IMG/VR virus record: IMGVR_UViG_3300037222_000116
Location: 23,903-87,902 of that record
DNA: 64,000 nucleotides
Source of the DNA: a virus
Strand: one strand, 5' to 3'
Shown: piece by piece, positions 27,701 through 51,405 of the stretch
Numbering within the stretch: the first letter of the stretch is position 1
Layout: every line of letters starts with the position of its first letter
Position numbers and translations under genes: made by a program
Notes under the pieces: model-generated
Told to the model about the DNA's origin: nothing
The model's database searches: none
Seen by the model: the letters and a program-made list of their open reading frames with translations, nothing else

Positions 27701-28309
27701 TTAACGCCGCTTGCGCGATCGGCGCGGCCCGTCGAGGTCGGGTAGCTCTTGGCGTCTTGGAGCCTTCTTGCCCTTCGTCCACGCAGGAGGCTCCCAGAGG
27801 CCGGGGCACATGAAGGCACCTTTGCCGCGCGCTGGATACTCGCCAGTCCTGATGATGCGCTTCAGGGCCTCATAATCACGGACGCAGGCAATGTTCTCCC
27901 AGCCAGTGTACCGCGTCTTGCGTTGCTCTTCCCGAGCGCGCTCTCGCCAAGGTCTGCCATCGTGTTCGGGATTGTAGGGAGGATAGGCAACTCCTGTTCC
28001 GAGGTGCTTGGCAAGTGCGTAGATTTGCCTGTCGGTCTGCGCTGACGTGTGGTGTTCATCGGGTGTGAGGATGTAGACGCGGTTGTCGGCGTCTCGATAG
28101 GCGATCGGTGTCGAATAGTTGTAGCTGTAGGCGACAATGCCCATTCTGCCGGGATGTGCGTTGTCAGCTATCGTTTCTGTCCAGAAGCCGGGGTTGCCGT
28201 AATTGCGCCGCGGCTTGCATGACTTACCTTCGTCCCAGCACTTCAGGATCTTCTGGTAGTACGCGTGGGTGCCGGACCCCCATCCGAGCGCTGGTGCTCG
28301 ACGAGCCAT
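27701..28309 (-). CDS. phage protein with C-terminal PRRQELPDLDG + Arg tail
   Basis: YSYNYSTPIA...TSAQT core; tag at 27728-27760. Confidence 0.75.
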   Translation of the reverse strand: MARRAPALGWGSGTHAYYQKILKCWDEGKSCKPRRNYGNPGFWTETIADNAHPGRMGIVAYSYNYSTPIAYRDADNRVYILTPDEHHTSAQTDRQIYALAKHLGTGVAYPPYNPEHDGRPWRERAREEQRKTRYTGWENIACVRDYEALKRIIRTGEYPARGKGAFMCPGLWEPPAWTKGKKAPRRQELPDLDGPRRSRKRR

Positions 28310-28315
28310 TGGAAC

Positions 28316-28681
28316 TTACTTCTTGCCGAGGAACGCGTTGGCGCGGGCGACCGCCACCAGCACTTCCGGCTTGGGTTGAGAGCCACGCAGGACGGTCTTC
28401 TCGATGGTCTGGAGCGCGACCATGACGACGCACGTCGCCAACTCGGGCGCGAGCGAGGTCAGCGTGCTCTGCTCGTTCGCCCACGCGCCTGTGTCGCCGA
28501 GCAGCGCGTTGACGGCGTTGTCGACGAGGGGACCGACGCTGCCGATCGTGACGTTCGCTGCACAGCCGAGCGTCGCGAGCCCTGCCTGCGTCAGCGTCGA
28601 TTCCACCTGCGCCGTGTTGCACGTCGCACACGACGTCACGAAGAGGCAGAGGGCCGTCAGAAACCGATTCGGTGAGCGCAT
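28316..28681 (-). CDS. putative lipoprotein
   Basis: Signal-like MRSPNRFLTALCLFVTSC lipobox; helical body. Confidence 0.65.
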   Translation of the reverse strand: MRSPNRFLTALCLFVTSCATCNTAQVESTLTQAGLATLGCAANVTIGSVGPLVDNAVNALLGDTGAWANEQSTLTSLAPELATCVVMVALQTIEKTVLRGSQPKPEVLVAVARANAFLGKK

Positions 28682-28718
28682 GTTGAGCAGCTTATGCTAC
28701 TCGTGTAGGCTCTTGCAA

Positions 28719-29444
28719 ATGGGCAAGCCACGCCGACGCCGACGCCGGATGTTCCGAGGAGTAGGACGGCTCGGTGCGCCTGCCGTGCGCGTGCCGCCTG
28801 TTCACGCTCGCCAGCGCGGCGTCTGTCAGGTCATCCGAGATCCTGACACGCTGCTGGTTCGCCACGCTCTTCAGGACGAAGAGCTGGAGTCGATGTACCT
28901 CGTCGACAAGAACATCCTGATCTTCGGCGATGAGAACTGCGTTGGCGAACCTGATCGGACCACGCACCTCGGGCCGAACTTCTGGATCGTCCACAACCAT
29001 CCGCTCGGGAGCCCACCGTTCCTGTCTGTCGCTGACGGCTGCTTCGCCAACTACCATTCTGCGCGTCGCATGGACGTCGCGGGCTTCATGCCGATCGACG
29101 AGCATCACGCCGTTCGGGTCGTCATGGAGTTCCGACAGCGCAACGCTCGGAAGCGATGGCCTTGCGACGATGACGCCGACATGAACTCGATGATGCCGAA
29201 CGACGGCAACATCGAGGTCAAGCAGTACATCGCTGATGAATACCCGCTCTACTTCGATACGGGGCGGCGACGGATTGAGCTTGCCAAGATGGACCGCGAG
29301 TTCCAGCGCGAGGAAGCTGAGCGCATCCGTGAAGACGAAGTGGAGAGGGAGCGAAGGAAGACCGCTCGATTCAATGACCTCGAAATCGACGGCGCTCGTC
29401 GTCCTCGAAAGCGCGTGAAGGCGGCACGTCGAGCTTCCCGATGA
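28719..29444 (+). CDS. JAB/MPN (RadC-like) metallopeptidase domain protein with Arg-rich ends
   Basis: E...VHNHPLGSPPFLSVAD matches HxH-x(7-8)-SxxD; N-terminal PRRRRRR...RLG, C-terminal IDGARRPRKR. Confidence 0.7.
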   Translation: MGKPRRRRRRMFRGVGRLGAPAVRVPPVHARQRGVCQVIRDPDTLLVRHALQDEELESMYLVDKNILIFGDENCVGEPDRTTHLGPNFWIVHNHPLGSPPFLSVADGCFANYHSARRMDVAGFMPIDEHHAVRVVMEFRQRNARKRWPCDDDADMNSMMPNDGNIEVKQYIADEYPLYFDTGRRRIELAKMDREFQREEAERIREDEVERERRKTARFNDLEIDGARRPRKRVKAARRASR

Positions 29445-29716
29445 CCAAGAAGGAATGGGATGGTCTGAAGGAGGGAGATACAATCTTCTTTTGCGCTACG
29501 GAAGAGGGAGATTTTTTCGGATATGGCGATCGTGCGCGTGTTCGCGGATCACGGTGGACGACAGATGGTACTCGGGTACACGTAACTGCTGAAAAGCAAG
29601 GTGTTGTCGTTCTTCCTGTGCAATCAGCAAAAGCATGGATGCTCAAGCCATGTAAGAAACGCCCTCGCCGCCAACAGCTTCCTGACCTCGGACGCACCAG
29701 AGCACGCCGTCGATGA
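29441..29716 (+). CDS. small SH3/KOW-like protein with PRRQQLPDLG tag
   Basis: MTKKEWDGLKEGDTI; ends KRPRRQQLPDLGRTRARRR. Confidence 0.75.
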   Translation: MTKKEWDGLKEGDTIFFCATEEGDFFGYGDRARVRGSRWTTDGTRVHVTAEKQGVVVLPVQSAKAWMLKPCKKRPRRQQLPDLGRTRARRR

Positions 29717-30030
29717 GCCCTCCGTCGTGGAAGCATATTGCACCGCAGCATCGAGAAGCCGTCCTGCGTGGGCTTGAGAAGGCCGCTCTCGCTGCCGAGA
29801 AGCACGCAGCGACGTTCGCCAGTGACGTCAACGTCAGGACGTTTCACGTCGAGCTGGCGAAAGCGTTTCGGGCGGCGGTAGGGAGACTCAACGAGGTCGA
29901 CGCTGTTGCTGTTGGTGACGTCCCGCCCGGCTACGTTCCCGACGACAAGATCACTTCCGGCGACGTTTTGGATGTTGTCGCTGGGATGGCACGCGCATTC
30001 GGCATGGAAATCCCGCCTCGGCGTCGTTGA
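29713..30030 (+). CDS. hypothetical protein
   Basis: ATGA overlap; ends FGMEIPPRRR. Confidence 0.6.
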   Translation: MSPPSWKHIAPQHREAVLRGLEKAALAAEKHAATFASDVNVRTFHVELAKAFRAAVGRLNEVDAVAVGDVPPGYVPDDKITSGDVLDVVAGMARAFGMEIPPRRR

Positions 30031-30358
30031 GGTCGGGGAGCCTTTGCTGCCTCGGTCTGCTCTTCGCGCAAGCCTTCTCGGTGCGGTGCCAGTACTGGAT
30101 GTCTTGCGGATAGATTAGGGACTCGCCGCCCGTGTAATGCTTCACCACGCCGCGATACGAGTAACCTCTACGAAGAAGTTTGCGCGCTTCTGGCGTTGGG
30201 TCAGCGTCGTAAACAGCATTATGGAAGTCTTCCGCCGTTGATGCCTTGAGCGGTTTCTCTGCGAGCTTTGCACATTTCATGGCGTACCCGGCGTACTGCG
30301 GCCCGCAGTAGCAGATGCGGTCGCCGACTTTGACCTTCGCCCATTCCTTCTCGGTCAT
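29951..30358 (-). CDS. SH3/KOW-like protein with PRQQRLPDL tag
   Basis: MTEKEWAKVKVGDRI, similar to the 29441 N-terminus; tag at 30026-30055. Confidence 0.7.
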   Translation of the reverse strand: MTEKEWAKVKVGDRICYCGPQYAGYAMKCAKLAEKPLKASTAEDFHNAVYDADPTPEARKLLRRGYSYRGVVKHYTGGESLIYPQDIQYWHRTEKACAKSRPRQQRLPDLNDAEAGFPCRMRVPSQRQHPKRRRK

Positions 30359-30615
30359 CGGCGTCTGCGCGCTTTGCCGAGGTCAGGGAGTTGCTGACGA
30401 CGAGGTCGCTTTCGTGGATTGCAGTCGACTGTCTTTACTTTGTACCAATCTCGGAAATCGTCGAAAGTGGTTCCTCGTTTCCAAGCGTCAGGGTGACTTG
30501 AGGCATTGGCGACAAGTGTAGCTGTGTGAGACGCGACCTTTTTCCATACGGTCGTTTCGCCTTCAACGAAGACAAAGCATGTTCCGACCGGGACCGCACT
30601 GAATAGATAAGCCAT
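30355..30615 (-). CDS. small protein with PRRQQLPDLG tag
   Basis: Ends RKRPRRQQLPDLGKARRRR. Confidence 0.75.
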   Translation of the reverse strand: MAYLFSAVPVGTCFVFVEGETTVWKKVASHTATLVANASSHPDAWKRGTTFDDFRDWYKVKTVDCNPRKRPRRQQLPDLGKARRRR

Positions 30616-31358
30616 CAGCGTCCTCGCCCCAATGTCATCGCCAAGGCAATCCCCAACCCAACTGCGACGGCTGCTGCGCTCCCGAGGTACACGCCGACGG
30701 CGGCAGTCTCACGCAGGCCATTGCCGAGATGGTTGGCTCGCGCCAGCGTGAATGCTCGTCGTGCTTGCAGGCCGCTGAAACGTCCGAGGTCGGGGAGGCG
30801 TTGTTTGCGGGGACCGCGATGCTTGCGTAGCAACTCATCACCCTCTGAGCGTGTGAAGCTCTGAACTTGACTGTCCTCTCGGGCGTCTTCATCAGTAATG
30901 TCGAAGGGGTTGTAGTAGACAGGGTGTAAAACGTATGCGGCCCATTCGGTATCTACATAGGACAACTGCATCGGACGTCCATTGATGACGACGTCGTAGC
31001 TTTGCCGTTTTCTAGCTACTCCGAGGTCGGGGAGTCGTTGTCGACGCGGGCGCTTCTTGTGCTCGTCTATCCATGCTTGCTCTATCTCGGCAGCTTTGAG
31101 ATTGGCGAGCTTGGCAATCACAGCTTTCGAGAAAAAGTGATCGGTGATTCCTATCTCGCGTCGATAGCGTGCAGCGGCTTCTTTGTACCATTGCCGCCAG
31201 AGCTTCTCAGCCAATGCTGGATCGTACTTCTTGGCTTTGAGGAATTTCTCGGCATTCTTCTCGATGGCCTGCTTGCGCGCGTAGAGTTCGTACTCGTTCT
31301 CGGCATAGAGATCGAGTTCGTCAGCGGAGCGTTCCTCATCACGCGACAAAGCGGGCAT
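30615..31358 (-). CDS. multi-module protein with two LPDLG tags and a C-terminal TM helix
   Basis: ELDLYAENEYELY...YD..LAEKLW domain; tags at 31020-31049 and 30783-30812; hydrophobic C-terminus. Confidence 0.75.
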   Translation of the reverse strand: MPALSRDEERSADELDLYAENEYELYARKQAIEKNAEKFLKAKKYDPALAEKLWRQWYKEAAARYRREIGITDHFFSKAVIAKLANLKAAEIEQAWIDEHKKRPRRQRLPDLGVARKRQSYDVVINGRPMQLSYVDTEWAAYVLHPVYYNPFDITDEDAREDSQVQSFTRSEGDELLRKHRGPRKQRLPDLGRFSGLQARRAFTLARANHLGNGLRETAAVGVYLGSAAAVAVGLGIALAMTLGRGR

Positions 31359-31364
31359 TGCTGA

Positions 31365-32243
31365 TTACTTCGAGCCGAAGGCCGCTTCTTCGTAGATGGC
31401 GGTCGCGAGCGGCTCGACGTTCAGGAGCACTTCGCTCGGTGACAGCGGCGGAAGCCCGTGGGCGTCTCGGTAGTCGCTCACACGCGCCATCGTCGCCACG
31501 TCGAGCTTGCCAGTGATCTTCACGGGGCGATACCCGCTCGACCACGCGTTGATCGCGCCTTGAAGGCGCATGATCTTTCTCATCATGCCCTCGGGCTGCA
31601 CACGGACACCCGACGCCGCCGCCCCGAGGTTGATGTGCCGGGAGCCATTCAGCGACTTGTTGACAACGAATCGAACAGGTGCGATTGCGCCTGCCCCTGC
31701 TTGCCCTCCGCAACAACTCAAATGCCCTGCGGCGTCGGAGCAGAGGTTTGTGCCGGGGGGACAAGTTGGCGTTCCTCCTGCTGCTATTGCTGCTGCCTGC
31801 GACATACCCGATTGAGATTTTCTAAAATTCCCTACCGTAACTGGTTGTGTGTAGTGATGCGGCGCACGCGGACGCCGCCGCCGATAAACTGGAGATGGTG
31901 TCCGGTAGACCGGCGCAGCGTAGACCGGCGCAGCGTAGGCCCGACGCGCGTAGCCAAGGTCCCCGAGCGATCCCTGCATGCTGATGTTGCTCGACGATGT
32001 GATCTTCATGTTCGGATTCGACGGATGCTTGCCGGGCAAGATCCCCGACTGCTGCATGCTGTCGTCCATGATCTTCTTGAGCATGTCGAGCTGGTCGCGC
32101 ATGGCTTTCGGCAACTGCGGCTGCTTGCCGACGAGCATGGGCCTGACGATGCTCTCGGGCGTCGGTGCGCCGCCAAGTGGGCCGACGTAGGGGAACGGAA
32201 GGTCGTAGTACGAATCGCGCTCCGGGTAGTCGTCGTAGCCCAT
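31365..32243 (-). CDS. putative virion protein with a C-terminal peptidoglycan-binding-like repeat
   Basis: SLGDLGYARR, YAAPV x2, LQGAIN...ITGKLDVAT motif. Confidence 0.65.
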   Translation of the reverse strand: MGYDDYPERDSYYDLPFPYVGPLGGAPTPESIVRPMLVGKQPQLPKAMRDQLDMLKKIMDDSMQQSGILPGKHPSNPNMKITSSSNISMQGSLGDLGYARRAYAAPVYAAPVYRTPSPVYRRRRPRAPHHYTQPVTVGNFRKSQSGMSQAAAIAAGGTPTCPPGTNLCSDAAGHLSCCGGQAGAGAIAPVRFVVNKSLNGSRHINLGAAASGVRVQPEGMMRKIMRLQGAINAWSSGYRPVKITGKLDVATMARVSDYRDAHGLPPLSPSEVLLNVEPLATAIYEEAAFGSK

Positions 32244-32322
32244 GTGTCGTGCTCCTCTGTGTAGAACCCTCACCATACCTCAAGTTGCTTCTTGACTCCA
32301 ACGTGGGCTAGGCTCGTTGGTC

Positions 32323-32607
32323 ATGGACACCATCGACGACGGCGAGCTGGGGCGCGCAGGGCGCTGCAAGTACGGCAAGGTCACGCGCGGCAGGCGCAAG
32401 GGGCAATGTCGCTTGCACAAGAAGGCTCCCAAGGCGAGCAAGCGGCGCAGCGGGCAGCGGCATTGCGTGCGGACGGCGGTCAATCGTCTCACGCGCCGCG
32501 AGTACTGCGCTGACTACGAGCCGGGTCCGTCGCCCTACCCCAAGGGCACGCGCTTCATCCAGCCGGTCTACGGCGCGCGGCGTAGCAAGCGTCGTCGCTC
32601 ACGCTAG
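32323..32607 (+). CDS. protamine-like CKYG protein 1
   Basis: MDTIDDGELG|RAGRCKYGKVTRG...YGARRSKRRRSR. Confidence 0.75.
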   Translation: MDTIDDGELGRAGRCKYGKVTRGRRKGQCRLHKKAPKASKRRSGQRHCVRTAVNRLTRREYCADYEPGPSPYPKGTRFIQPVYGARRSKRRRSR

Positions 32608-32636
32608 AGAACAACGGCCCAAAGCGCGAGAACGCT

Positions 32637-32705
32637 CTGAGCCGTTGGACCGATGTTCCGGTCTTGTGTGGTCCCGTCGGAAGCGGGGAGCCGCAACAGG
32701 CTCAG
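32637..32705. ncRNA. candidate three-way-junction RNA element
   Basis: CTGAGCC-GTTG/CAAC-A-GGCTCAG closing stem with internal GACCG/CGGTC and CCCG/CGGG stems. Confidence 0.3.
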
Positions 32706-32711
32706 TTTCTC

Positions 32712-32742
32712 TTGACGTTGCTGTAGCAAATCTGCTACTGCT
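32712..32742 (+). promoter_or_regulatory. sigma70-like promoter with embedded operator (32722-32739)
   Basis: TTGACG, then TGTAGCA-AATC-TGCTACT; ATG at 32748. Confidence 0.65.
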
Positions 32743-32747
32743 CGGGA

Positions 32748-33155
32748 ATGCCTTACATCACCCTCGATGGTATTTCCTATGCTGTCGTTCACGACGGCTG
32801 CTTCATCACAAATGATGGCCTCGATTACCTGCGGGCGATCGACCGCGGCAAGGGCTGTTACTCGAAGACGCGTGATGCCCCCGAACGTGAGCAGGTGGAA
32901 CTCGCCAAGAAGTTCATCGTCGCGAACTGTCTCAAGACCAAGACGATCCGTGATCTGATTGATTCCTATGGCTGGAAGCATCGCTGTGAGCGTTGGGGGA
33001 AAGCACAGGGCTTTGCCGCCTACGTGACCAACGGCGCGTTTCTCCAAGCTGCCTATGAGATGGGAGGCATCGCCATCAAACCGTGCAGGCCGGGTTGCAT
33101 CAATGCATGGCTGTCCCTCGGATTTGCCCGAGGCCGCACGAAGCTCTGCTTGTAG
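32748..33155 (+). CDS. phage hypothetical protein (SYGxKH...YxxNGxF type)
   Basis: DSYGWKHRCE...YVTNGAFLQAA; has its own promoter. Confidence 0.7.
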   Translation: MPYITLDGISYAVVHDGCFITNDGLDYLRAIDRGKGCYSKTRDAPEREQVELAKKFIVANCLKTKTIRDLIDSYGWKHRCERWGKAQGFAAYVTNGAFLQAAYEMGGIAIKPCRPGCINAWLSLGFARGRTKLCL

Positions 33156-33255
33156 TTTAGTTGCAATTATACAACAATTTGCAATCGCTGTAGCTCCACG
33201 TCTACACTCGCTCCCGATGCTGTAAGCAATTCCTCGTTCATCTCGGAGCGACACC

Positions 33256-33471
33256 ATGGCGACCAACGAATTCGTTTCCAACGACGGCGAGCTGGGGCGC
33301 GCACGCAAGCGCACCTGCAAGTTCGGCAAGACCAAGGCGGGCAAGTGCCGCAAGACGCCCAAGCGCAAGGGTCGCCGTGGGTGCTCCTTCGGTCGCTCGC
33401 GCACCACCGGCAAGTGCAAGCCGCGCACGAGCAAGTACGGCACGCAGCGCGGCCCCCTGCGCCCTCGCTAA
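33256..33471 (+). CDS. protamine-like CKFG protein 2
   Basis: MATNEFVSNDGELG|RARKRTCKFGKTKAGKCR...CSFGRSRTTGKCK. Confidence 0.75.
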   Translation: MATNEFVSNDGELGRARKRTCKFGKTKAGKCRKTPKRKGRRGCSFGRSRTTGKCKPRTSKYGTQRGPLRPR

Positions 33472-33482
33472 AGGAGACGACC

Positions 33483-33797
33483 ATGAGCGACTGTGGATGT
33501 GACGGAGGCGACGACCTCGGTCGCGCCAAGAAGCGACGCACCTGCAAGTACGGTCGCGTCAAGAGCACCGGGCGCTGCCGCAAGCAGCCGAAGCGTCGCA
33601 CTGCCTCGAAGCGAGGCCGGGCGATCCCCAAGGTCTGCAAGCAGCAGCTCTCGCGCGACATGAGGGCCGCGCACGGCGACCGCGGGATGGCGCGCGACGC
33701 GATGTACGCGTTCCACAACTGCACCGACGACATCAAGCGCGGTGTGCGCACGAGGTCGCAGGGCATGTTCGGCGCACGCCGCCGCAAGCGTCGATAG
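33483..33797 (+). CDS. protamine-like CKYG protein 3
   Basis: AAGGAG RBS; MSDCGCDGGDDLG|RAKKRRTCKYG...GMFGARRRKRR. Confidence 0.75.
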   Translation: MSDCGCDGGDDLGRAKKRRTCKYGRVKSTGRCRKQPKRRTASKRGRAIPKVCKQQLSRDMRAAHGDRGMARDAMYAFHNCTDDIKRGVRTRSQGMFGARRRKRR

Positions 33798-33812
33798 GAG
33801 CCCTGTCCTTCA

Positions 33813-33989
33813 ATGCCCAAGCGCAGCGACGAGTACACCGAGGGCTTTCGCACGGGGTATGACGAGGGCAAGAACGACGGCTACGAGCAGTGCGAAGAAG
33901 CCGCGAAGCGTGGTGCGCTGAGCGGCTCTCGCCGCCGTTGCAAGTACGGCAAGACGAAGGCCGGGAAGTGTCGCAAGCGTCCTCGCTGA
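33813..33989 (+). CDS. protamine-like CKYG protein 4 (absent from the ORF track)
   Basis: Hand-translated MPKRSDEYTEGFRTGYDEGKNDGYEQCEEAAKRGALSGSRRRCKYGKTKAGKCRKRPR. Confidence 0.7.
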   Translation: MPKRSDEYTEGFRTGYDEGKNDGYEQCEEAAKRGALSGSRRRCKYGKTKAGKCRKRPR

Positions 33990-34038
33990 GCAGCACTCGT
34001 TCGACAGCAGGCATCCCCTCGCGGTAGCATCTCTCCCC

Positions 34039-35775
34039 ATGTACCAACTCGGCGATTCGCAGACCTCCCGGTTCGCTCCCAAGACCAAGACCACGCAGGC
34101 TGATCGTGACCTCGTGCGCCAGCAGCAGGCGCAGGCACTCAAGATCGCCCAGCTCCAGCGGGCGCTGCGGTCCGCGGCTGCCAAAGACGATCGAGGCCAC
34201 CTGCCGAGCGTCAACGGGCACATGGACTCTGTGACCGTCGAAGCCCTGAACAACCTGATGCACAATCGAAGGTCCGCCTTTCAGGGCGCGTCGCCGTCCG
34301 AGATCCTCGTCAACATGGACCGGCTGATTTCCGAGATCAGCAAGAATGCCATCGGTGCGACCGAGCACAGCGCCACGCCGACAGCCGGGACGCGGATGCA
34401 CAACGATCATCCGAGCGCCTACACCGTGCGCGTCGGCAAGGCGACGATCGAGGAGCGCCACGTCGCCCCGAAGGGAAGTGCGATTGTCGGACACTACACC
34501 TGCACGGGTGGCATCTGCGTCGGTAACTCTGTCGACGCGCGCGCCAAGTCGTTGATCCTGCAACGGCTGCTCAATATGTTCCCGCCTTCCATCACCGGGC
34601 AGCCTCTCATCGCCGATGGCAAGATCGGCAACAACGCAGCGGCGGCATTCAATGCCGTCCTCGCCCACGCGGCTGCACGTCAGAATCAATCCCCGCCGAC
34701 GCCGGTCCCGCCCGAGAACATCGTGCGCGACATCGAAGCGTATATCGACGCGCTCAACGAAGAGCTGCCGTTCGCGCGGCAGACAGGTGGCAGCCCGACC
34801 TCGCCGCTGCTCTACACCGCGCAGGCCAACGGGAACATTACGGGCGACCCGCAATGGCGCTGCTACGTGATGAACCTGCAAGCGCAGCTCAATCGCTTCG
34901 GGCACCGGATTTCGTTCGATGGCGTCATCGGCAAGCACACGAGCGCGGCGGTGCAGTCGGCGCTCGGAGGAAGCTGGAATCCTCTCGCCGTCGCCAAGGC
35001 GATGCCCAAGCTCATCGTCATGGTCAAGCAGCTTGCCGACCGCAAGAAGAAGCCTCCGGTGCTGGCGAGCACCATCTCGCTCATCAACGCCAAGTGCGGC
35101 CTCGAAGTCACGCAGCCCGTCGAGGACAAGAAGCATCAGGGAGCCGTCGATCGCGTCGGCCAGCCGCCCGTCGTCATCCAGCAGAACGCGATGATCCCGC
35201 TCGAAAAGGTGCGGCTGCTGCAATCGCTCCTGAACACGATGCCGCTCGAAGCGGTCGGGGGACTACGCTTGCAGACAAGCGGGATGCTCGACGACCAGAC
35301 GGTCAATGCGTGGCGGGCCGTCAACCAGTACGTCGCGCACGTCAACGGGCGCGGTGATCTCGGAAACGAGATCGCGTCCATCGACGCGAGCGGCATGGTA
35401 CGGGAGATCGACACCGTGCTCGCACAGGCAAAGCAGTGGACCGCGCAGTTCGTGCAGGCACGGGCTCCGCAGCGGCGCGGGAGTGGTGCTCCAGCTCCGC
35501 GCCACACGCGTTCGGCTCCGATGCCGCAGCCGCAGGTGTATCACCTGCCACCGGAAGTGACTGTGCCCGAGGCACCCTCGTTCCCGCAGGGACCGGAGGA
35601 CAACTATCCGCCCGAGGGACCGGGCTCGGGACCGGACTATCCGCAGACCGCTCCCGAGCCGCCCCGAGGCAAGAAGACGCCGTGGGCTCTGATCTTCAGT
35701 GGCCTCGCTGCGGCTGCCACCGTCGTCGGCGTCGGTGCAGCCGTACTCAGCAAGCAGCACTCGCACTCGATGTAG
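34039..35775 (+). CDS. protein with four peptidoglycan-binding-like repeats and a C-terminal TM anchor
   Basis: LQxxL[NR]...[DN]GxxGxxT-type repeat x4; Pro-rich linker; WALIFSGLAAAATVVGVGAAVL; begins MYQLGD. Confidence 0.75.
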   Translation: MYQLGDSQTSRFAPKTKTTQADRDLVRQQQAQALKIAQLQRALRSAAAKDDRGHLPSVNGHMDSVTVEALNNLMHNRRSAFQGASPSEILVNMDRLISEISKNAIGATEHSATPTAGTRMHNDHPSAYTVRVGKATIEERHVAPKGSAIVGHYTCTGGICVGNSVDARAKSLILQRLLNMFPPSITGQPLIADGKIGNNAAAAFNAVLAHAAARQNQSPPTPVPPENIVRDIEAYIDALNEELPFARQTGGSPTSPLLYTAQANGNITGDPQWRCYVMNLQAQLNRFGHRISFDGVIGKHTSAAVQSALGGSWNPLAVAKAMPKLIVMVKQLADRKKKPPVLASTISLINAKCGLEVTQPVEDKKHQGAVDRVGQPPVVIQQNAMIPLEKVRLLQSLLNTMPLEAVGGLRLQTSGMLDDQTVNAWRAVNQYVAHVNGRGDLGNEIASIDASGMVREIDTVLAQAKQWTAQFVQARAPQRRGSGAPAPRHTRSAPMPQPQVYHLPPEVTVPEAPSFPQGPEDNYPPEGPGSGPDYPQTAPEPPRGKKTPWALIFSGLAAAATVVGVGAAVLSKQHSHSM

Positions 35776-42171: not shown

Positions 42172-42173
42172 CC

Positions 42174-43561: not shown

Positions 43562-43774
43562 GTGGACCCCAACCAGAATTTGCGTGAGCAGCGGCGTCTG
43601 GTTGCTGAGATCCAACGCGTCAGCGTGTGCTGTGTTGGCGATATGGATTCGTCGCTCGGCGAAGAGCTTGCTGAGTTGGTCAAGGCCCTCGACGAGTGGA
43701 TCTCGAAGGGCGGTTTCCTCCCGTCGGCGTGGGGAGGTTGTGACGGCGTGCATCAAGAGCCGCACCGCTCGTGA
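43562..43774 (+). CDS. small phage protein (MDPN...LDEWISKGGFLP type)
   Basis: Recurrent small phage protein pattern. Confidence 0.65.
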   Translation: MDPNQNLREQRRLVAEIQRVSVCCVGDMDSSLGEELAELVKALDEWISKGGFLPSAWGGCDGVHQEPHRS

Positions 43775-44906: not shown

Positions 44907-45751
44907 TTACCGGACTGGTGTTGCTCGCTGCTATGGCGTTCTTCGTCGGCGGCGTGGTCGGTGCCAAGAAGCCGAGCGTCTTCTTCAGGGCCAAAGAAGA
45001 GCAGAAGCAACTCGCCGCACCAGCTCCCGGCGACCAGCAGGCCCTCGCCGACTGGAAGAAAGTGTTTCGCGAGGTCGTCATCGCCAACGACGGCGGCGTG
45101 TCGCCTGTCATGGAGCGCTTTCTTACCGACGAAGAGAGCTTTCGAGAAACGGCTGAAGCCGAGAAGCAACGCATTCTCGATGCTGCTGCTGCCCGTGAGA
45201 AAGCACTTCTCTCGAAGATCGAAGAACAGAAAGGCGCGCTGGAGACATTGCAGAAGCCGGTCGTCAAGGACCCCGAACCCTGCAAGGTCTGCGGCGAGCC
45301 ACACGACTACCCGACGACGCCGTGCCTGCTGACGCTACGCACGCCTTTGATCGACATTCCGCGCGCCGCCTTCGAGGCCGATTGGAAAGTTTGCACGTCT
45401 CCTAGTGAACGCTGGGGTGTCCTCAAGCGATGGGATGCGAAGGGCTATCGCTTTCCCAATGAGATGCGCGCACGACTGCTCAAGAACAATGCGGGCGAGG
45501 GTACTCCTACCGGAGATGGTGGTCCCGGCGCGCGCAAGATGCTGCGCCAACTGTTCGACGAACAGGACACGCCGCCGCCGAAGCCGCCCGAGCCTGTAGT
45601 CGAGAAGAGAACCTGCATCACGCCGTACCTCCACGAGCTGCTATGCATTGGCTGTCGACACGAAGCGATCTGGCACGGAGCCGACCGCGATGGCTGTTGC
45701 CTGCGCACGCACTGCCATTGCGCTCGCTTTCAAGGGGAGCCTCGCCGATGA
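44903..45751 (+). CDS. membrane-anchored protein with Cys clusters
   Basis: N-terminal TM; CKVC; CRH...H...C.C. Confidence 0.6.
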   Translation: MITGLVLLAAMAFFVGGVVGAKKPSVFFRAKEEQKQLAAPAPGDQQALADWKKVFREVVIANDGGVSPVMERFLTDEESFRETAEAEKQRILDAAAAREKALLSKIEEQKGALETLQKPVVKDPEPCKVCGEPHDYPTTPCLLTLRTPLIDIPRAAFEADWKVCTSPSERWGVLKRWDAKGYRFPNEMRARLLKNNAGEGTPTGDGGPGARKMLRQLFDEQDTPPPKPPEPVVEKRTCITPYLHELLCIGCRHEAIWHGADRDGCCLRTHCHCARFQGEPRR

Positions 45752-45945
45752 CCCGCCCACGCTGCGCAATGGTCGTGTTCCGCCTGACCAAGCACACGGT
45801 CAAGAAGGGCCGCTGCAAGCGCAAGGCGCGCTTCCGGTCGCTCTTGGGCTTTCATTTCTGCCACCAGCACCGCGAGAAGCTGTCAATCACGGTCACGTCC
45901 AGCTCGATGCTGCTACCGGTGGGCTGGGAACGGAGCGGCGTATGA
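45748..45945 (+). CDS. small Cys-containing protein
   Basis: RC...RCKRKA...FCHQH. Confidence 0.5.
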   Translation: MTRPRCAMVVFRLTKHTVKKGRCKRKARFRSLLGFHFCHQHREKLSITVTSSSMLLPVGWERSGV

Positions 45946-46082
45946 ACAAGAGAACCAAGCAGACCCTCGCCGACCTCGGCTTAGCGCTGTTCGGAGGGGC
46001 GATGTGGATGGCGATCGTGCTCCTGTGCGGGCTCGGGCTCGCGATTCTGCTTGCGTCCTGCCTCAAGGCGTGGCATTACTAA
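45942..46082 (+). CDS. small membrane protein
   Basis: Single hydrophobic segment; ATGA overlap. Confidence 0.5.
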   Translation: MNKRTKQTLADLGLALFGGAMWMAIVLLCGLGLAILLASCLKAWHY

Positions 46083-46127
46083 CTCTAGCAAAATGTCCTT
46101 TGCTAGAGTAAATCTCATATGAGATCC

Positions 46128-46156
46128 TTGACAGGGCCTTGGCGGTCTGGTAGCCT
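46128..46156 (+). promoter_or_regulatory. sigma70-like promoter
   Basis: TTGACA-17 bp-TAGCCT with extended TG. Confidence 0.65.
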
Positions 46157-46198
46157 GTTTTCGAGCGATCACCACACGCAGTAGGGGAGGAACGGACC

Positions 46199-46816
46199 AT
46201 GTCGAGCGAGAATCCAAGCCGCTTTGCCGAGCTGGCGACCGAGATGTTGGGCGCGAAGGTCGCGAGCGACGCGGTCGCACAGGTCTTCGCGAGCGCCAGC
46301 GCTGAAGTGAAGACCGCCCTCGCGGACGCGGTGCTCAAGACCATCATCAAGCGCATCCACGAACCCGCGACGAATTGGGCAATCGAGGCCGTCGTCAGCG
46401 AGCACGTCAGCGTCGCCGCACGCCTGCTCGTTGATGAGCAGCGCGGCGAGATCGAGAAGCGCGTCGCCGAGCGACTCACCGCCAAGAACATCTCGGGCTG
46501 GATCGAGCAGCAGGTTCGCGCCTACGTCGACACGGCTGCCAAGGCAGGTTGTGGCGTCGCTCGCCTCGAAGGCGGTGGGCTGATGCGCAAGCCGACGGTC
46601 GGGCGGATCGTTCACTGGACGAACTGGCAGGGCGTGGTCTGTGCGGCGATCATCACGGCGGTCGGGGATGCGACCGAACAGTCACCGCTCGGCTACGTGC
46701 GCCTGTCTGTATTCGAGGCGGGGATGCCGCAGGTACGCACGCTCGCAGGCGTGCTCTTCAGTGCGGACGGCCCGCAGCTCGATCACTGGCACTGGCCCGC
46801 ACGGGAGGACGGCTGA
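46199..46816 (+). CDS. hypothetical protein; probably two genes fused by a +1 insertion
   Basis: Helical N-terminal part plus MRKPTVGRIVHW...WHWP domain starting at 46583. Confidence 0.6.
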   Translation: MSSENPSRFAELATEMLGAKVASDAVAQVFASASAEVKTALADAVLKTIIKRIHEPATNWAIEAVVSEHVSVAARLLVDEQRGEIEKRVAERLTAKNISGWIEQQVRAYVDTAAKAGCGVARLEGGGLMRKPTVGRIVHWTNWQGVVCAAIITAVGDATEQSPLGYVRLSVFEAGMPQVRTLAGVLFSADGPQLDHWHWPAREDG

Positions 46817-47184
46817 TGGCCGATCAGGTCAAAGAGTTCCTTGGCAACTGCGGCGTCGTGACGCAGGCCGAGGCCAAAGAAGGCGCCTCGGGGCTTCGCC
46901 TTCGAGCCGAAGACATGCTGCATCGGTTCCTCGCCACCGGGCATCCTCGCATCGCGCCGACGCTGCGAGAGTGCATTGACCTCGATGCAGCCCTGACGAT
47001 CTGGATGTGGCTGTTCGAGCACACAGACGTCTGCAAGACGTGCTCTGACGGCCAGATCACCAAGCGAGAGGGCGTTGGCTGCGCGCGAGGGCGGCTCATG
47101 CACCGGGCGCTGCTCGTCGACAAGGACTTCTTCGACAACTACGACGCCGACAAAGGCGCGTACCGCGTCGAGGCGAAGCGATGA
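46816..47184 (+). CDS. hypothetical protein
   Basis: GGAGG RBS; CKTC. Confidence 0.6.
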   Translation: MADQVKEFLGNCGVVTQAEAKEGASGLRLRAEDMLHRFLATGHPRIAPTLRECIDLDAALTIWMWLFEHTDVCKTCSDGQITKREGVGCARGRLMHRALLVDKDFFDNYDADKGAYRVEAKR

Positions 47185-47471
47185 CTCCCAAGGACACGAA
47201 GCGCACAACCACCAGAATCACGTTCAGCGTCACGCCCGAGATGGCGTTGGCTGTCGAAGAATACCAGCGGCGCTACAACGCCCGGAGCCCATCTGAAGCA
47301 GTAAGAATGATGGTGTCGTTCGCACTGTCTCAGCCGCACGATCGGGCGCTGATGATGGCGTACCAGCAGGTGAGAGCCGACCTGTGGAGTGTTGCTCGGA
47401 AATCGTTTCAGGCGGCGTTCGACACGATCACCAACACCGTCATCGATCAGGTTGAACGGAGGGGACGCTGA
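47181..47471 (+). CDS. RHH-like DNA-binding protein
   Basis: RITFSVTPEM...SPSEAVRMMV. Confidence 0.55.
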   Translation: MTPKDTKRTTTRITFSVTPEMALAVEEYQRRYNARSPSEAVRMMVSFALSQPHDRALMMAYQQVRADLWSVARKSFQAAFDTITNTVIDQVERRGR

Positions 47472-48589
47472 TGCGCTACGAAGACGTGCTCGGCGACATG
47501 GCGTTGCCACAAGGCCCTCGGACGCCTCGGGCCATCATGGACGAGTACATCAAGTCGTCTGCGCCGACGGTGCAAGCCATTGAGCGTGTTCTCAAGTCGC
47601 TTGGGCCTATCAAGGACGAAATAAGCTCACCACTGGCTGAAGTGCGTGATGTACTCCAAACACGCACCGTCGCCGATAACGTGCCTGTGTTTCAATGGCA
47701 GCTTCAATTCGCCAACCGGGACGTCTTTCAGCACGTCCTCAACTCGCCCGGTGGCGAAGAGGTCTACAAAGCCTGCATCGCCGATCACCACCAGTGGTGC
47801 CGTTGGGTCGTCAACGGCTGTTCTACTTTCGAGCTGACACATAGCCTCGCAGCGGGCCTCGTGCTCACCGAGCCCCCGCCGCTCGAAGAGGACAGCTTCA
47901 AGCTGCCCTTCGACAGCTTCACGATTGTCCTGCCTGACGGCGTGCTGCCCTTCTGGTATGGCGAGACGGAGAGTAGCAACCAGAAGTGGGCCAATCTGGT
48001 CTTGGTCAGCAAGTTCAAAGCAGCCTCGGACGGCAAAGCGATCTATCAGATCACGTCCTACTGCGACGGCGTGAGCTTGTATCGGCGGCAGAAGTTCGCC
48101 GAGCTGGACTCGCCCGAGGCTGACGATTGGGTCAAGGCGTTTGAAGACGATCCGCCGATCACGTCCAACGATGCCATCACACACAAGACGGCGTTGAGGA
48201 TTGTCAGAAATCTGGTTGCTTGGATCGAGGCCAACGGTCCCGGCGAGCGCCAAGGCGGCAAGCGGCCTCCGAAGAAGAACCGGAAGCCGATTCCTGACGA
48301 CCCGAACGCACTACCCACGCCGACGACGTGGGTCGTGGGCAGAGAGATCAAGCTCTCGCCCGATCTGCGGCAGATGGCATCTGAAGTCGTGTTGGGGGAA
48401 AGCAAGAAGGACAAAGTCGCCGGGTGGAAGGTTCGTGTTCGTTACATCGTCCGAGGCCACTGGCGCATGCAGGCGCACGGCGTCGGCAGAGCCGAGCGCA
48501 AGCGCATGTTCATTTCGCCTTTCTGGCGTGGTCCATTGGGCGCGGCGGCGTGGAGCCATCTCTATCAGCCCGAGGAGCAGACCACATGA
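47471..48589 (+). CDS. phage protein with a C-terminal VRGHWR motif
   Basis: VRGHWRMQAHG...FISPFWRG. Confidence 0.7.
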   Translation: MRYEDVLGDMALPQGPRTPRAIMDEYIKSSAPTVQAIERVLKSLGPIKDEISSPLAEVRDVLQTRTVADNVPVFQWQLQFANRDVFQHVLNSPGGEEVYKACIADHHQWCRWVVNGCSTFELTHSLAAGLVLTEPPPLEEDSFKLPFDSFTIVLPDGVLPFWYGETESSNQKWANLVLVSKFKAASDGKAIYQITSYCDGVSLYRRQKFAELDSPEADDWVKAFEDDPPITSNDAITHKTALRIVRNLVAWIEANGPGERQGGKRPPKKNRKPIPDDPNALPTPTTWVVGREIKLSPDLRQMASEVVLGESKKDKVAGWKVRVRYIVRGHWRMQAHGVGRAERKRMFISPFWRGPLGAAAWSHLYQPEEQTT

Positions 48590-48774
48590 CACTCGCAGAG
48601 CTTCAGGAGCAGTTCGTCAAGCTCAAGGTCCAATCGTGCTCGATGGCGAGGCGTGGGACTTCCTACGTCTGCGTTCTCGTCGTCGAGGACCACATCGACA
48701 TCGTCAAGGGCTATGGAACAACCCTCGACGCTGCCGTTCGCGATGCGCTTCAGGGCGCGGTGAACGGCTCGTGA
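48586..48774 (+). CDS. hypothetical protein
   Basis: GGAG RBS, overlapping stops and starts. Confidence 0.55.
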   Translation: MTLAELQEQFVKLKVQSCSMARRGTSYVCVLVVEDHIDIVKGYGTTLDAAVRDALQGAVNGS

Positions 48775-49091
48775 AGAAGGTCGTCATCCACGCGCCGCAC
48801 GAGCCGACGACGAACCTGCACGTCGAGCACGTCTGGAAAGAGATGCTGCGTCGAGGAGCACCGAGGTTGCGTGCTGTGCAGCTCGACGACGGGAGCTGGC
48901 AAGCGCTCGAAGGCAGTCATCGCCTCTGGGTGGTGAGCGAACAGGAGCATCCGATCGTCATTGTTCCTGTACTTCCTGCCCAGCGCATCACGACTGACGT
49001 ATTGGGTATGCGACGCTCGGTCAGAGACATCCTTGAAGCGTTGGACGCCTTGTCCCGCCCTGCCTACAAGCTCAAGGCCGAGATCAAATGA
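48771..49091 (+). CDS. ParB/Srx-like small protein
   Basis: PRLRAV...ALEGSHRL. Confidence 0.55.
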   Translation: MKKVVIHAPHEPTTNLHVEHVWKEMLRRGAPRLRAVQLDDGSWQALEGSHRLWVVSEQEHPIVIVPVLPAQRITTDVLGMRRSVRDILEALDALSRPAYKLKAEIK

Positions 49092-50014
49092 CACTGCTCG
49101 AACAGGTGATTGCTGACAGCCGCAGGCTCGCACCAAAGACCAAGGCGGCGTACCTCGCGTCCATTAGACTCTTCCTCGCCTACGTCGGTACTGGAGTAGG
49201 CAAATATGTCGTGGTGGATGCGCGCACACTCAAGCCTGCGGACCTCGACAGGTGGTGCAAGGCGCAGGCGGCGACGTGTACGGCAGTGACCATCAACAGC
49301 CGACTGGCAGCCGTCAAGACAGCGTCCAAACGCCTGCACGAACTGCATGGCCTGCCTGACTTCGCAGCATCCGTCGAAGGCTTCAAGGGCACGCACGGCG
49401 CAGCGATGGCCCAGCAGTCGGCCAAGACGCCTGCGCGGGCTCTGTCGACCGACGAGGTCAACGCCATGTACGGCGTCTGCGCAGAAGGAACATGGATGGG
49501 CATGCGGGACCGGGCGATCCTGTGTCTCGGCTTCAGGCTCGGCCTGCGTCGCATGGAGATCGCACAGGTCGAGTGGCGACACTTCGAGGATGGCATCAAG
49601 AAGCTCCGCGTCGCAGGCAAAGGCGACAAGGACGACATCCTCGACGTCGACGACATGACGCAGGGAGCTTTGCGTGCGTTCCGCGCCAAGACACCGCCAG
49701 CGCTCAAGACCACCGGCTTTGTCTTCGTCCGAGCCCGCAATCAGCTCATCGACATCCAGAGGCCGCTGACGCCCGATGGCATCAACAAGATCGTCAGTGT
49801 GATTGCAGCCAAGGCGAAGGTGCCTTGTCACCCGCACGAGATGCGCCACACGTTCATCTCACAGGCGTTGGCGGCGGGGGTGCCTCCATGGATGGTCCAG
49901 AAGGCAGCGCGGCACGCGTCGCCGCTGACGACCTACGGCTACGCGCACATGCCTGCCAACGATGGTGCGATCGGGAATTCGATTCCGACGGACAGCAACG
50001 GGGAGGAAGAGTAA
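49088..50014 (+). CDS. tyrosine recombinase (XerC/D-like)
   Basis: RDRAIL...GLRRMEI, GKGDK, HEMRHT, HASPLTTYGY. Confidence 0.92.
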   Translation: MTLLEQVIADSRRLAPKTKAAYLASIRLFLAYVGTGVGKYVVVDARTLKPADLDRWCKAQAATCTAVTINSRLAAVKTASKRLHELHGLPDFAASVEGFKGTHGAAMAQQSAKTPARALSTDEVNAMYGVCAEGTWMGMRDRAILCLGFRLGLRRMEIAQVEWRHFEDGIKKLRVAGKGDKDDILDVDDMTQGALRAFRAKTPPALKTTGFVFVRARNQLIDIQRPLTPDGINKIVSVIAAKAKVPCHPHEMRHTFISQALAAGVPPWMVQKAARHASPLTTYGYAHMPANDGAIGNSIPTDSNGEEE

Positions 50015-50169
50015 ATGCGCCTCGCGATCGTGTACTACCCGGATGGCAAGCCCCGCATGACGCTGGAATCGCACTTCATCGAAGACAACGGCCTGACGTG
50101 GCTCGTCTACGTTGCGTTCGCTGCGACGGTCGAGAATTGGGCAATGGGCGGGACGACAGCGGTAGAACG

Positions 50170-50397
50170 ATGACGCCGCCGAAGCTGGCTGAGAAAGCCA
50201 TCAAAGCCCTCGCGCGCGAAGACGCCATCGAGCACTTGGAGTTGTTCTACGACTCCGAGACGATTCTCTTCACTACGTTTGGCAGTCGCGTGACAGCAGC
50301 CATGATGTGTCGGTTGCTCGCGATGCCGCCGACGTGGGAGACTGACGTCGAGCTGGAGCGCCTCAAGCACTTCCTGCGCAACGAAGCCAAGGAATAA
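50170..50397 (+). CDS. hypothetical protein
   Basis: ORF within the operon. Confidence 0.5.
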   Translation: MTPPKLAEKAIKALAREDAIEHLELFYDSETILFTTFGSRVTAAMMCRLLAMPPTWETDVELERLKHFLRNEAKE

Positions 50398-50402
50398 TCA
50401 CC

Positions 50403-50897
50403 ATGCGCATCCTGCGTCTGACGATGTTCAAGAACCCCGACGAGCACACCGGCATGATCGTCAGGGCCTCGGACATCACTGTGCCCTTCGACGAGATGCG
50501 ACGCCAGATGATGATGCCTGACTTCCTCGTGCTCGCCGAAGAGTTCGAGATGCCTGACGGCGTGTCGATCGAACAGGCGACCGCCGAGGCTGTTGGAAGG
50601 CAACGACGCAGAGCCAAGACCGAGCACGATCTCGCCATCATGTACTTCTGGGGTACGCGTCACCTGCTCGACCGTGTGCTCGCTCCCGGTAGGGCAGGCT
50701 GGAGTGCCACTAGCCCCGCGCCGTACACCGCCGACGATGTGGTCCCTGTCTTTGAGCAAATCGCCGCCTACAGCAACTACCGCGGCCAGCTCATGCGAAC
50801 AGCTACGAGTGACGGCTGGATCGTGGTGTTGAGCAACGGGAGGATTGCCCGCGAGCGCATGCCGTTCGGCGGTCGTGGCGGGATGGTGAACGGGTAG
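50403..50897 (+). CDS. hypothetical protein
   Basis: AAGGA RBS; converges on the next gene. Confidence 0.6.
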   Translation: MRILRLTMFKNPDEHTGMIVRASDITVPFDEMRRQMMMPDFLVLAEEFEMPDGVSIEQATAEAVGRQRRRAKTEHDLAIMYFWGTRHLLDRVLAPGRAGWSATSPAPYTADDVVPVFEQIAAYSNYRGQLMRTATSDGWIVVLSNGRIARERMPFGGRGGMVNG

Positions 50898-51405
50898 CTG
50901 CTCGCCCGAGGTCGGGGAGTTGCTGCCTGCGTGGTGTCTTGCGAATCTGCTTTTTGATCTCGTCGAGATGCTCGTGCAACAAGTCAGCATAGAGACAGCG
51001 CATGTATGGGTCGATGCCCGGCGTGTAAGGCGCTTCGGAGTAGTTGTTGCCTCGCAGCGCGCTCACGAAGACGCCGCCAATGCAGCCGACCGGCTTGTGT
51101 CCTCGACGAACATTGCCATTGCCGTCAAACCAATCGCCGATACCAATGCAGACATCAAACGGCCCGTCGGTAGTAGCTGGATTGGGAGCACCACCATCGC
51201 CGTCCCACTCGAAATACGGATCGTTCTCGACAAGCATGCGGACGTCGAGCTTGCGTCCTTCGCTCTCGTCGCGTGCTGAGCGCACAGCACCTTCGATGCT
51301 ATGCCCGACCCAGCCACCGCAATGCTCGCGGAAGAAGTTGACGGCGCTGCGAAACTCAGGCGTCAGCAGGACGTGCTGCTTCTTGCGTCGGCGTGTGGCT
51401 GCCAT
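50803..51405 (-). CDS. phage protein with PRRQQLPDLG tag
   Basis: MAATRRRKK...FFREHCG...CIGGV...DPYMR; tag at 50905-50934. Confidence 0.75.
   Translation of the reverse strand: MAATRRRKKQHVLLTPEFRSAVNFFREHCGGWVGHSIEGAVRSARDESEGRKLDVRMLVENDPYFEWDGDGGAPNPATTDGPFDVCIGIGDWFDGNGNVRRGHKPVGCIGGVFVSALRGNNYSEAPYTPGIDPYMRCLYADLLHEHLDEIKKQIRKTPRRQQLPDLGRAATRSPSRHDRRTACARGQSSRCSTPRSSRHS

Follow-up and report, generated by a model that had tools for sequence, protein, structure and literature searches.

A short LPDL peptide tag shared by nine mostly unrelated accessory proteins of a single virus lineage

The tag, its carriers and the level of conservation

We analysed a 64,000-nucleotide stretch of viral DNA, henceforth the window, which spans bases 23903-87902 of the single-contig virus record IMGVR_UViG_3300037222_000116 (87,902 bp; henceforth the record). 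An original prediction had reported that seven copies of a short peptide of the form PRxQxLPDL(G), here called the tag, occur on otherwise dissimilar proteins of this window, mostly followed by an arginine-rich tail. All seven were recovered in frame and in place, in open reading frames (ORFs) of 86 to 247 amino acids (aa), and no further LPDL occurs in any of the six frames of the window. The ORFs that bear them, referred to as carriers 1 to 6 (Table 1), do lie on both strands with one of them 20 kb from the cluster formed by the others, and the sole plus-strand copy is that of carrier 2. Searching the whole record for the tag, as had been proposed, raised the count from seven to ten copies on nine proteins, the three additional copies lying outside the window, about 34 kb from the window cluster. 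A degenerate eleventh copy, VVDLGLRAAPRRRRR, closes a 69-aa ORF next to carrier 6.

The tag is a lineage-specific peptide module which has been copied, mostly onto C-termini, among nine accessory proteins of an uncultured virus and kept by selection on its amino-acid sequence. Its recurrence far exceeds chance: the pattern [RK]xQxLPDL was seen 10 times in the record, compared with a mean of 0.02 and a maximum of 1 in 100 random genomes generated under a first-order Markov model. At the DNA level, the pattern CTNCCNGAYCT matched the window 7 times against 0.79 expected (a count of 7 was reached in 0 of 100 shuffles), and all 7 matches are in-frame tags.

Table 1. Tag carriers and other features of the record. 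Positions refer to the window unless marked as genome (i.e., the whole record).
Feature	Length (aa)	Position	Strand	Description
Carrier 1	202	27701..28309	-	PRRQELPDLDG at 27728-27760, then PRRSRKRR and stop
Carrier 2	91	29441..29716	+	PRRQQLPDLG at 29663-29692, then RTRARRR and stop; in paralogue trio
Carrier 3	135	29951..30358	-	PRQQRLPDLN at 30026-30055, with Asn for Gly; 24 further residues, ending KRRRK
Carrier 4	86	30355..30615	-	PRRQQLPDLG at 30376-30405, then KARRRR and stop
Carrier 5	247	30615..31358	-	internal tags PRRQRLPDLG at 31020-31049 and PRKQRLPDLG at 30783-30812
Carrier 6	200	50803..51405	-	PRRQQLPDLG at 50905-50934, then 33-residue moderately basic tail
Three outside carriers, adjacent genes		genome 16673-17498	-	tag copies at genome 16709-16735, 17014-17040 and 17181-17207
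Cys-rich ORF	69	51407..51616	-	ends VVDLGLRAAPRRRRR, degenerate junction and tail; directly upstream of carrier 6
Cysteine enzyme	188	genome 17508-18074		directly upstream of the three outside carriers
Protein with second junction type	241	28719..29444	+	ends RFNDLEIDGARRPRKRVKAARRASR
Basic protein	96	32317..32607	+	leader MVMDTIDDGELG, RAGR, Cys-bracketed basic knuckle CKYGKVTRGRRKGQC; ends VYGARRSKRRRSR
ORF, start uncertain	150	33345..33797	+	GGDDLG, then RAKKRRTCKYGRVKSTGRC; ends MFGARRRKRR
Small protein	58	33813..33989	+	acidic leader to ALSG, then SRRRCKYGKTKAGKCRKRPR to the stop
Arg/Lys/Pro/Ala/Val-rich protein	312	57352-58290	-
Acidic Cys-rich protein	311	genome 15741-16676	-
Capsid-like gene product (a lead)	239	genome 8765-9484	-	third-position GC content 0.96; in 17 of 18 related viral loci
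Family A DNA polymerase	999	19935-22934	+	N-terminal UDG-superfamily domain and 3'-5' exonuclease in one protein
Integrase		49088-50014
ORF inside the tag cluster	121	28316-28681	-	lipoprotein-like start LCLFVTSC; overlaps the long form of plus-strand ORF 28404-29444
Beta-sandwich leads	347	60697-61740
Repeat protein	1,213	53701-57342	-

The upstream domains of the carriers had been described as unrelated apart from one paralogous pair. In an all-against-all BLASTP comparison the pair turned out to be a trio, consisting of the 91-aa and 135-aa carriers of the window and a 106-aa carrier outside it (the 91-aa protein aligned to them with E values of 1e-4 and 7e-9, respectively). Beyond this trio, every pair of carriers aligned in the tag alone, in agreement with the earlier description, and the upstream domains of 6 of the 9 carriers have no detectable similarity. 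No Pfam, PHROG or NCBIfam family was found for any carrier, and the 202-aa carrier 1 had no homologue but itself among 5.8 billion proteins. The stop codon of carrier 4 overlaps the start codon of carrier 3 (ATGA), while the tail of carrier 6, whose 200-aa form is present in the protein collection (P0003), overlaps the convergent ORF 50403-50897.

Carrier 5, in which each of the two tags follows its own domain and a hydrophobic helix forms the C-terminus, has relatives. Its N-terminal domain retrieved 296 of them at E<=0.001, and for almost every one of the 150 listed the best-matching stretch falls within roughly residues 1-130. The domain occurs alone or within proteins of up to 1,376 aa, and was fused to RadC-JAB in 3 of the 20 large proteins scanned. 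It had been suggested that homologues of the upstream domains be checked for absence of the tag. For this domain LPDL was present in 0 of 12 small stand-alone homologues, from which it follows that the tag is an add-on; one homologue (P0099) ends GLRGRRRRR.

Alignment of the ten copies gave an invariant core of R-x-Q-x-L-P-D-L (i.e., with the R, Q, L, P, D and L columns fixed), followed by Gly in eight copies and by Asp or Asn in the other two. The eight residues ahead of LPDL carry a charge of +3 to +6 in all ten copies, and basic residues stand on both sides of the core, so the flank is two-sided. The tag is never N-terminal: the stop codon comes 3 to 11 residues after LPDL in six copies and 25 to 135 residues after it in four. 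Tail net charge is +4 to +6 in half of the copies, namely five of the six with short tails, and +0 to +3 in the other half. Six of the ten copies, all in small carriers, have a Cys 4 to 7 residues ahead of the basic run. Searching with a wider regular expression (hydrophobic-x-acidic-Gly plus a basic run) added few coding sites.

We then asked on which level this conservation acts. When the ten copies were aligned by codon, the entropy at codon positions 1, 2 and 3 was 0.55, 0.44 and 1.36 bits, respectively, meaning that variation is concentrated in third positions; furthermore, scans of both the record and the window found no out-of-frame or intergenic copies. The original prediction had argued for selection on the peptide, and had named conservation at the DNA level, with stray copies equally common, as the pattern that would speak against it. 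As that pattern is absent, we place the conservation on the peptide. The hexamer GACCTC, which had been reported as invariant, is so in all 7 window copies, but outside the window two of the three copies have GAT and one of the three has CTT; the hexamer is also common in the window (38 plus-strand and 34 minus-strand occurrences). The 90-base stretches around the seven window copies share no RNA fold (z-scores from -1.71 to +2.01).

Codon usage differs between the core and its flanks. In the Pro, Arg and Gly codons of the flanks the third position is nearly saturated (1.76 to 1.97 bits), whereas of the 30 Leu, Pro and Leu codons of LPDL 29 end in C or T and one ends in A; CTG and CCG are never used there, though they account for 30% and 42% of the Leu and Pro codons of the genome. 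This pyrimidine bias may reflect recent common descent, with the copies not being independent. The cluster was found in six DNA runs labelled as peat or permafrost metagenomes, and no RNA run was listed with it. Pieces of the cluster from three of the runs (X1, X5 and X6) are identical, so they offer no natural variants with which selection could be tested.

Distribution of the tag and the wider use of basic ends

To map the distribution of the tag, we searched its profile against the collection of 5.8 billion proteins (the search covers lengths of 80-2,000 aa and scores the 8,000 candidates that share most words). The six matches returned all belong to this virus and come from contigs 87.9 to 88.6 kb long. 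We also scanned five whole records of related viruses, three of which have terminal repeats, and found two weak matches (E values of 0.018 and 0.025), both in one record. The first of these (E 0.018; record G004, locus L148, C1:28450-28800) reads RKLRQQVPDLGRRRRRS and lies in a 517-codon open frame of non-coding-looking composition. Matches to the DNA pattern in viral contigs (5 loci) and metagenome contigs (at least 118 loci) were taken as chance: all were single, most were out of frame or without the context of the tag, and at no locus were there two copies. Comparing the tag cluster with 50,697 phage records by blastn gave no match, and no publication on LPDLG as a viral tag was found, as judged by titles and the openings of abstracts. 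As far as these collections reach, the motif in its R-x-Q-x-L-P-D-L form is confined to one virus lineage.

The tag is nevertheless a local elaboration of a broader habit of this genome and its clade, namely a hydrophobic or acidic residue, any residue and Gly, followed by a strongly basic peptide. Many proteins of the record end with a small residue or Gly and then a basic run, further ends of this kind being MFGARRRKRR, VYGARRSKRRRSR, PLRGSRRRR..., DELGKARRRK... and LEIDGARRPRKR... In related viruses, the neighbours of the enzyme gene described below often have a transmembrane helix plus a poly-Arg end, or end in GLAGSRKRRRR, GLRGGRRRRKR or GIGRARSRRRR. No such tails were present in the 21 annotated proteins that we inspected in SSIP-1 (Salisaeta icosahedral phage 1), the phage of a halophile.

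A second junction type, RFxxLEIDGA followed by an Arg-rich stretch, ends the 241-aa protein of the window and occurs twice in a 623-aa protein outside it, once in shortened form (RFSHIEGA). The 241-aa protein also contains IVHNHPLGSPPFLSVAD (HNHPLG...S..D), which resembles the metal and active site of RadC/JAB proteins. Its best BLASTP segments fell on the JAB motif of two RadC-bearing proteins (P0143 and P0103; E values of 0.05 and 0.3), and an Atlas search listed Prok-JAB, Phage_Mu_F, VG15 and Phage_min_cap2, all below the bar; there was no Pfam match and no sequence match in the PDB. We treat the JAB assignment as a lead from sequence likeness.

In four proteins the junction, [DE]LG or LSG, closes a short acidic leader and precedes a basic knuckle of the form CK[YF]GK...GxC. 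Three of these are in the window (the 96-aa, 150-aa and 58-aa entries of Table 1) and the fourth is at genome 10631-11092. In relatives (L126, L127, L131 and L144) the knuckle CK[YF]GKxKxGRRKGQC makes up stand-alone proteins of about 30 to 45 aa, some of which end SLMGARRRRRRR or GLSGGRRRKHRR. By composition, these Cys-knuckle peptides look like DNA-condensing core peptides. Two further proteins have extreme compositions. The 312-aa protein has an extremely high content of Arg, Lys, Pro, Ala and Val and resembles protamine or histone H1. The 311-aa protein has an N-terminal membrane helix, PRRRRVSRGLGDG and a very acidic, Cys-rich body; it sits between the 623-aa protein with the LEIDG junctions and the three outside carriers, and could be a counter-charge partner of the basic tails.

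The adjacent enzyme and the kind of virus

Directly upstream of the three outside carriers lies the gene of a 188-aa cysteine enzyme. Its Pfam score for Transglut_core is 21.6 bits, compared with a cut-off of 23, while its counterparts in relatives score 39.2 (L126), 33.8 (L127), 29.8 (L128) and 26.1 bits (L130). Its closest relatives, P0009 and P0015, are encoded on metagenome contigs of 73,687 and 85,281 bp and show 57-64% identity. Residues Cys94, His127 and Asp146 are invariant in the 59 aligned sequences. An AlphaFold2 model (predicted local distance difference test, pLDDT, 93.1; predicted template-modelling score, pTM, 0.90) was compared with known structures by Foldseek, which matched it to putative cysteine proteases (3isr, E 2e-5; 3kd4), to PNGase and to LapG (4fgo, template-modelling scores 0.57/0.58), as well as to a transglutaminase (4xz7, E 2e-4) and TglA (9crn). 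To our knowledge, no maturation role has been described for the transglutaminase/LapG fold, and no publication on a maturation protease of transglutaminase fold in a jelly-roll virus was found, again as judged by titles and abstract openings.

Among the 50,697 phage records, the sole match of the enzyme was gp34 of SSIP-1 (E 9e-7, 32.5% identity over 114 residues), which GenBank annotates as a structural protein and which has a hydrophobic anchor at its end. Since this only cultured relative is annotated as a structural protein of SSIP-1, the enzyme family is plausibly a virion component; the enzyme could mature proteins or cut the cell wall on entry. Co-folding the enzyme (59-row alignment) with a 45-residue tag tail (10 rows) gave scores of 0.00 and 0.02 against a mark of 0.32, from which we draw no inference either way.

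Shine-Dalgarno-like sites and ATGA overlaps mark this as a virus of prokaryotes. The record encodes a D5-type primase-helicase, an SNF2 helicase, a family A polymerase with a UDG-like domain and an integrase, in addition to phosphatases, NUDIX proteins, methyltransferases and peptidoglycan-binding proteins. Terminase, portal, HK97-type capsid and prohead protease gave no Pfam, PHROG or NCBIfam match in scans of 47+63+29+43 proteins, a result that leaves room for divergent forms. Related viral loci were found with an alignment as query (the single 188-aa sequence and the 202-aa carrier had no relatives among viral contigs), and 18 of 18 such loci, on records of 39 to 138 kb, contain the gene of the enzyme.

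A 239-aa protein is found in nearly all of the same loci (Table 1). Its model has a low pLDDT of 58.9 and matched nothing in Foldseek at E<=0.001, while in a wide structural search (VIA) most of the 50 matches listed were jelly-roll capsid proteins, with Z scores of at most 4.5; that it is itself a jelly-roll capsid protein is a lead from this weak model. It had no tblastn match in the 50,697 phage records. Relatives of the protein were found in metagenome-assembled genomes labelled Vicinamibacterales, Gemmatimonadota, Actinomycetes and Polyangiales. In one of these (L145, labelled Gemmatimonadota) the relative lies inside a 4.74-Mb chromosome, at 3705234-3725863, and the locus reads GPDLGRSRKRRCKRVRNGRNGC, a setting that indicates integrated relatives and suggests a phylum in which hosts might be sought. 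In L128, L130 and L132-L140, two proteins per genome, the capsid-like protein and a second ORF, start with VGVAPGTTT(x)(x)L, and these may be two capsid proteins with a common N-terminal arm. SSIP-1 is a membrane-containing phage with an architecture of the PRD1-adenovirus type and two types of capsid protein (PMC6356626). The present virus may be a member of a tailless clade, with records between 39 and 138 kb in size, and the group appears undescribed save for its single-gene link to SSIP-1.

Interpretation, rival explanations and remaining features

How might a single peptide serve nine different proteins? Our preferred reading, which we put forward tentatively, is that the basic flanks would fasten each carrier to the DNA of the virus, or to some other polyanionic surface within the particle as it assembles, so that the carriers would be co-packaged as cargo, and that a single reader protein, most likely a viral protease cutting at or next to the Gly, would recognise the core. 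Such a cut would free the domain from its tail, following the logic of adenovirus precursor processing combined with that of the T4 capsid-targeting sequence. The best candidate for the reader is, as a guess, the 188-aa transglutaminase/LapG-fold enzyme beside three of the carriers; clan CE (adenain-like) proteases gave no Pfam match in the ORFs scanned, and this enzyme is the only candidate. The link between tag and virion is circumstantial, and consists of the adjacency of the enzyme, the co-occurrence with RadC-JAB and the Gly plus poly-Arg ends.

The original prediction had likewise proposed a tag appended to diverse domains for packaging, cleavage at the Gly and delivery at infection, with the T4 internal proteins as precedent. 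Peptide-level selection, non-homologous carriers and the add-on nature of the tag have all stood up, but the T4 precedent fits in logic only: the tag is C-terminal or internal, and no head, scaffold, portal, terminase or prohead protease of T4 type was detected by the family scans. In T4 the capsid-targeting sequence stands at the N-terminus, and the prohead protease takes it off. The T4 internal proteins have nothing in common but this sequence, which by itself suffices to bring foreign proteins into the head and also loads GFP (PMC3012670). The likeness lies in one short peptide being attached to diverse, fast-evolving and otherwise unrelated small proteins, and the difference in its position and in its unrelated sequence.

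Adenovirus precursor processing offers another parallel. The consensus of their protease, adenain, is (M/I/L)-x-G-x|G or (M/I/L)-x-G-G|x, with Gly at P2. LPDLG fits it in the Leu at P4 and the Gly at P1' but has Asp at P2 in all ten copies, and the invariant core R-x-Q-x-L-P-D-L is longer. Adenovirus pVI is cut at IVGL|G, which releases the basic DNA-sliding peptide GVQSLKRRRCF (PMC4246237), known as pVIc or the 'molecular sled' (PMC4246237, PMC4740752). The two systems share a hydrophobic-x-x-x|Gly junction followed by a short basic C-terminal peptide (compare IVGL|GVQSLKRRRCF with LPDL-G-RTRARRR). In adenovirus, too, many unrelated precursors share the site, and the basic peptides bind DNA; the present virus, by weak structural leads, belongs to the jelly-roll capsid world rather than to the tailed phages.

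Three other systems invite comparison. The encapsulin cargo-loading peptide is a short C-terminal peptide with hydrophobic residues plus Gly and a basic end, which sends unrelated enzymes into the shell; here, no gene for an encapsulin or HK97-fold shell was detected, the motif is a different one, and the tag is basic on both sides and sometimes internal. The sortase signal LPXTG consists of the motif, a hydrophobic segment and a basic tail, and LPDLG, with positive charges after it, is one residue away. We rejected sortase identity because Leu replaces Thr in all ten copies, nine of the ten lack a hydrophobic segment before the basic tail, and the carrier sequences have no obvious N-terminal signal peptides. 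Lastly, the polyvalent proteins of phages and conjugative elements treated by Iyer et al. in 2017 are said to accompany the DNA and to be cleaved into fragments. The N-terminal domain of carrier 5 does occur in large multi-domain proteins, some with RadC-JAB, but in the present virus most domains have a small gene to themselves and carry a tag of their own; this comparison is one of domain co-occurrence.

Several observations weigh against the packaging-and-cleavage reading. The tag was found in no other protein of at least 80 aa among the 8,000 candidates scored from the 5.8-billion collection, nor, convincingly, in the five whole related records (the two weak matches described above, E 0.018 and 0.025, fall in one of them), and being absent from relatives it cannot be a general packaging code of the clade. 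One copy reads LPDLGKP up to the stop, without an Arg tail, and two more tails are weakly basic, so the tail can be dispensed with and what is conserved precedes the Gly, a pattern that would suit a docking motif and a cleavage site equally well. Five carriers lie in a mixed-strand cluster beside methyltransferase and glycosyltransferase genes, with no obvious structural operon. Finally, the enzyme resembles pseudomurein endoisopeptidases (PeiP 8z4f, E 5e-4, and phage psiM2 PeiP in BFVD), and in relatives its gene is near those of peptidoglycan-binding proteins, for which reasons it may be a lysin.

The main alternative, nearly as likely, is that the tag docks its carriers to a single hub of the host or the virus (for example the nucleoid, a membrane, a chaperone, a degron protease or a replication factor), with neither cleavage nor packaging being obligatory. 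Besides the invariant residues all preceding the Gly and the copy without an Arg tail, this would account for the several internal copies, for the five carriers among non-structural genes on both strands, for the resemblance of the carriers to small orphan accessory genes without a family, and for the restriction of the tag to a single lineage, as expected of adaptation to one host target. On the other hand, the tag matches no known bacterial hub-binding motif that could be compared. Moreover, three carriers adjoin a virion-type enzyme in a long minus-strand block with the capsid-like gene, and Gly plus basic junctions on many other proteins of the genome suggest a common grammar of processing or packaging.

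It is improbable that the tag is an inherited remnant without shared function, having begun as the tail of a single ancestral gene and been multiplied by tandem duplication and recombination. The two tight clusters, the ATGA overlaps and the paralogue trio do point to tandem duplication, and the unsaturated third positions of LPDL fit a fairly recent common ancestry. However, codon positions 1 and 2 hardly vary, whereas in the flanks the third position approaches saturation; the upstream domains of six of the nine carriers have no detectable similarity, only the tag having been kept or transplanted; and one copy is found 20 kb, and three about 34 kb, from the window cluster.

We regard as very unlikely a further scenario, in which the tag is a transglutaminase substrate whose invariant Gln acts as acyl donor and is cross-linked by the adjacent enzyme to a Lys residue in a protein of the virion or the host. 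The Gln is present in all ten copies amid Lys and Arg, Q-x-P-hydrophobic-D is a Gln-donor motif preferred by animal transglutaminase 2, and the enzyme has the transglutaminase fold with an intact Cys-His-Asp triad and matched 4xz7 and TglA 9crn. Yet among its structural matches those that rank higher and cover more are proteases (3isr, 3kd4 and LapG), bacterial members of the Transglut_core family are mostly regarded as proteases, and enzyme and tag are linked by gene adjacency alone. Close to refuted is the notion that the repeat acts as nucleic acid (a protein-binding site, recombination hotspot or RNA structure) with the peptide incidental. In its favour are the invariant GACCTC of the window copies and the pyrimidine bias of LPDL; against it are the concentration of variation in third positions, the one shared frame of long ORFs in 10 of 10 copies with no strays, GAT and CTT in the outside copies, and the lack of a shared RNA fold.

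Extending the packaging-and-cleavage reading to the whole group, we can picture a probably tailless jelly-roll clade from soil and peat (39-138 kb, SSIP-1-linked) that loads swappable cargo on its genome through protease-delimited poly-Arg labels, with the present virus using a nine-residue code, R-x-Q-x-L-P-D-L-G, read by a virion protease of transglutaminase/LapG fold. This would make it the equivalent, among bacterial viruses, of the processing of core precursors in adenovirus; this larger picture we consider doubtful. If the tag were truly an address or cut label, it would be the first portable C-terminal cargo tag described for a bacterial virus and would provide a compact, transferable means of getting proteins into particles. 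It would also mean that the adenovirus-style grammar of a junction plus a basic peptide extends to prokaryotic viruses of the jelly-roll world, and would give a testable function to orphan accessory genes and to the conserved transglutaminase-fold enzyme. Even without a function, the tag is a clean natural case of a lineage-specific short linear motif spreading over unrelated viral genes.

As for the remaining features, a scan of 27000-34200 for promoters and terminators gave results at chance level, and the window contains no tRNA. The tag cluster also includes the 121-aa ORF listed in Table 1. Elsewhere in the window, the 347-aa protein gave only weak beta-sandwich leads (Atlas), and the 1,213-aa protein, which has many SNSNGVTFGMSGST.ITAS repeats and a distinct C-terminal domain, is probably a fibre or spike.

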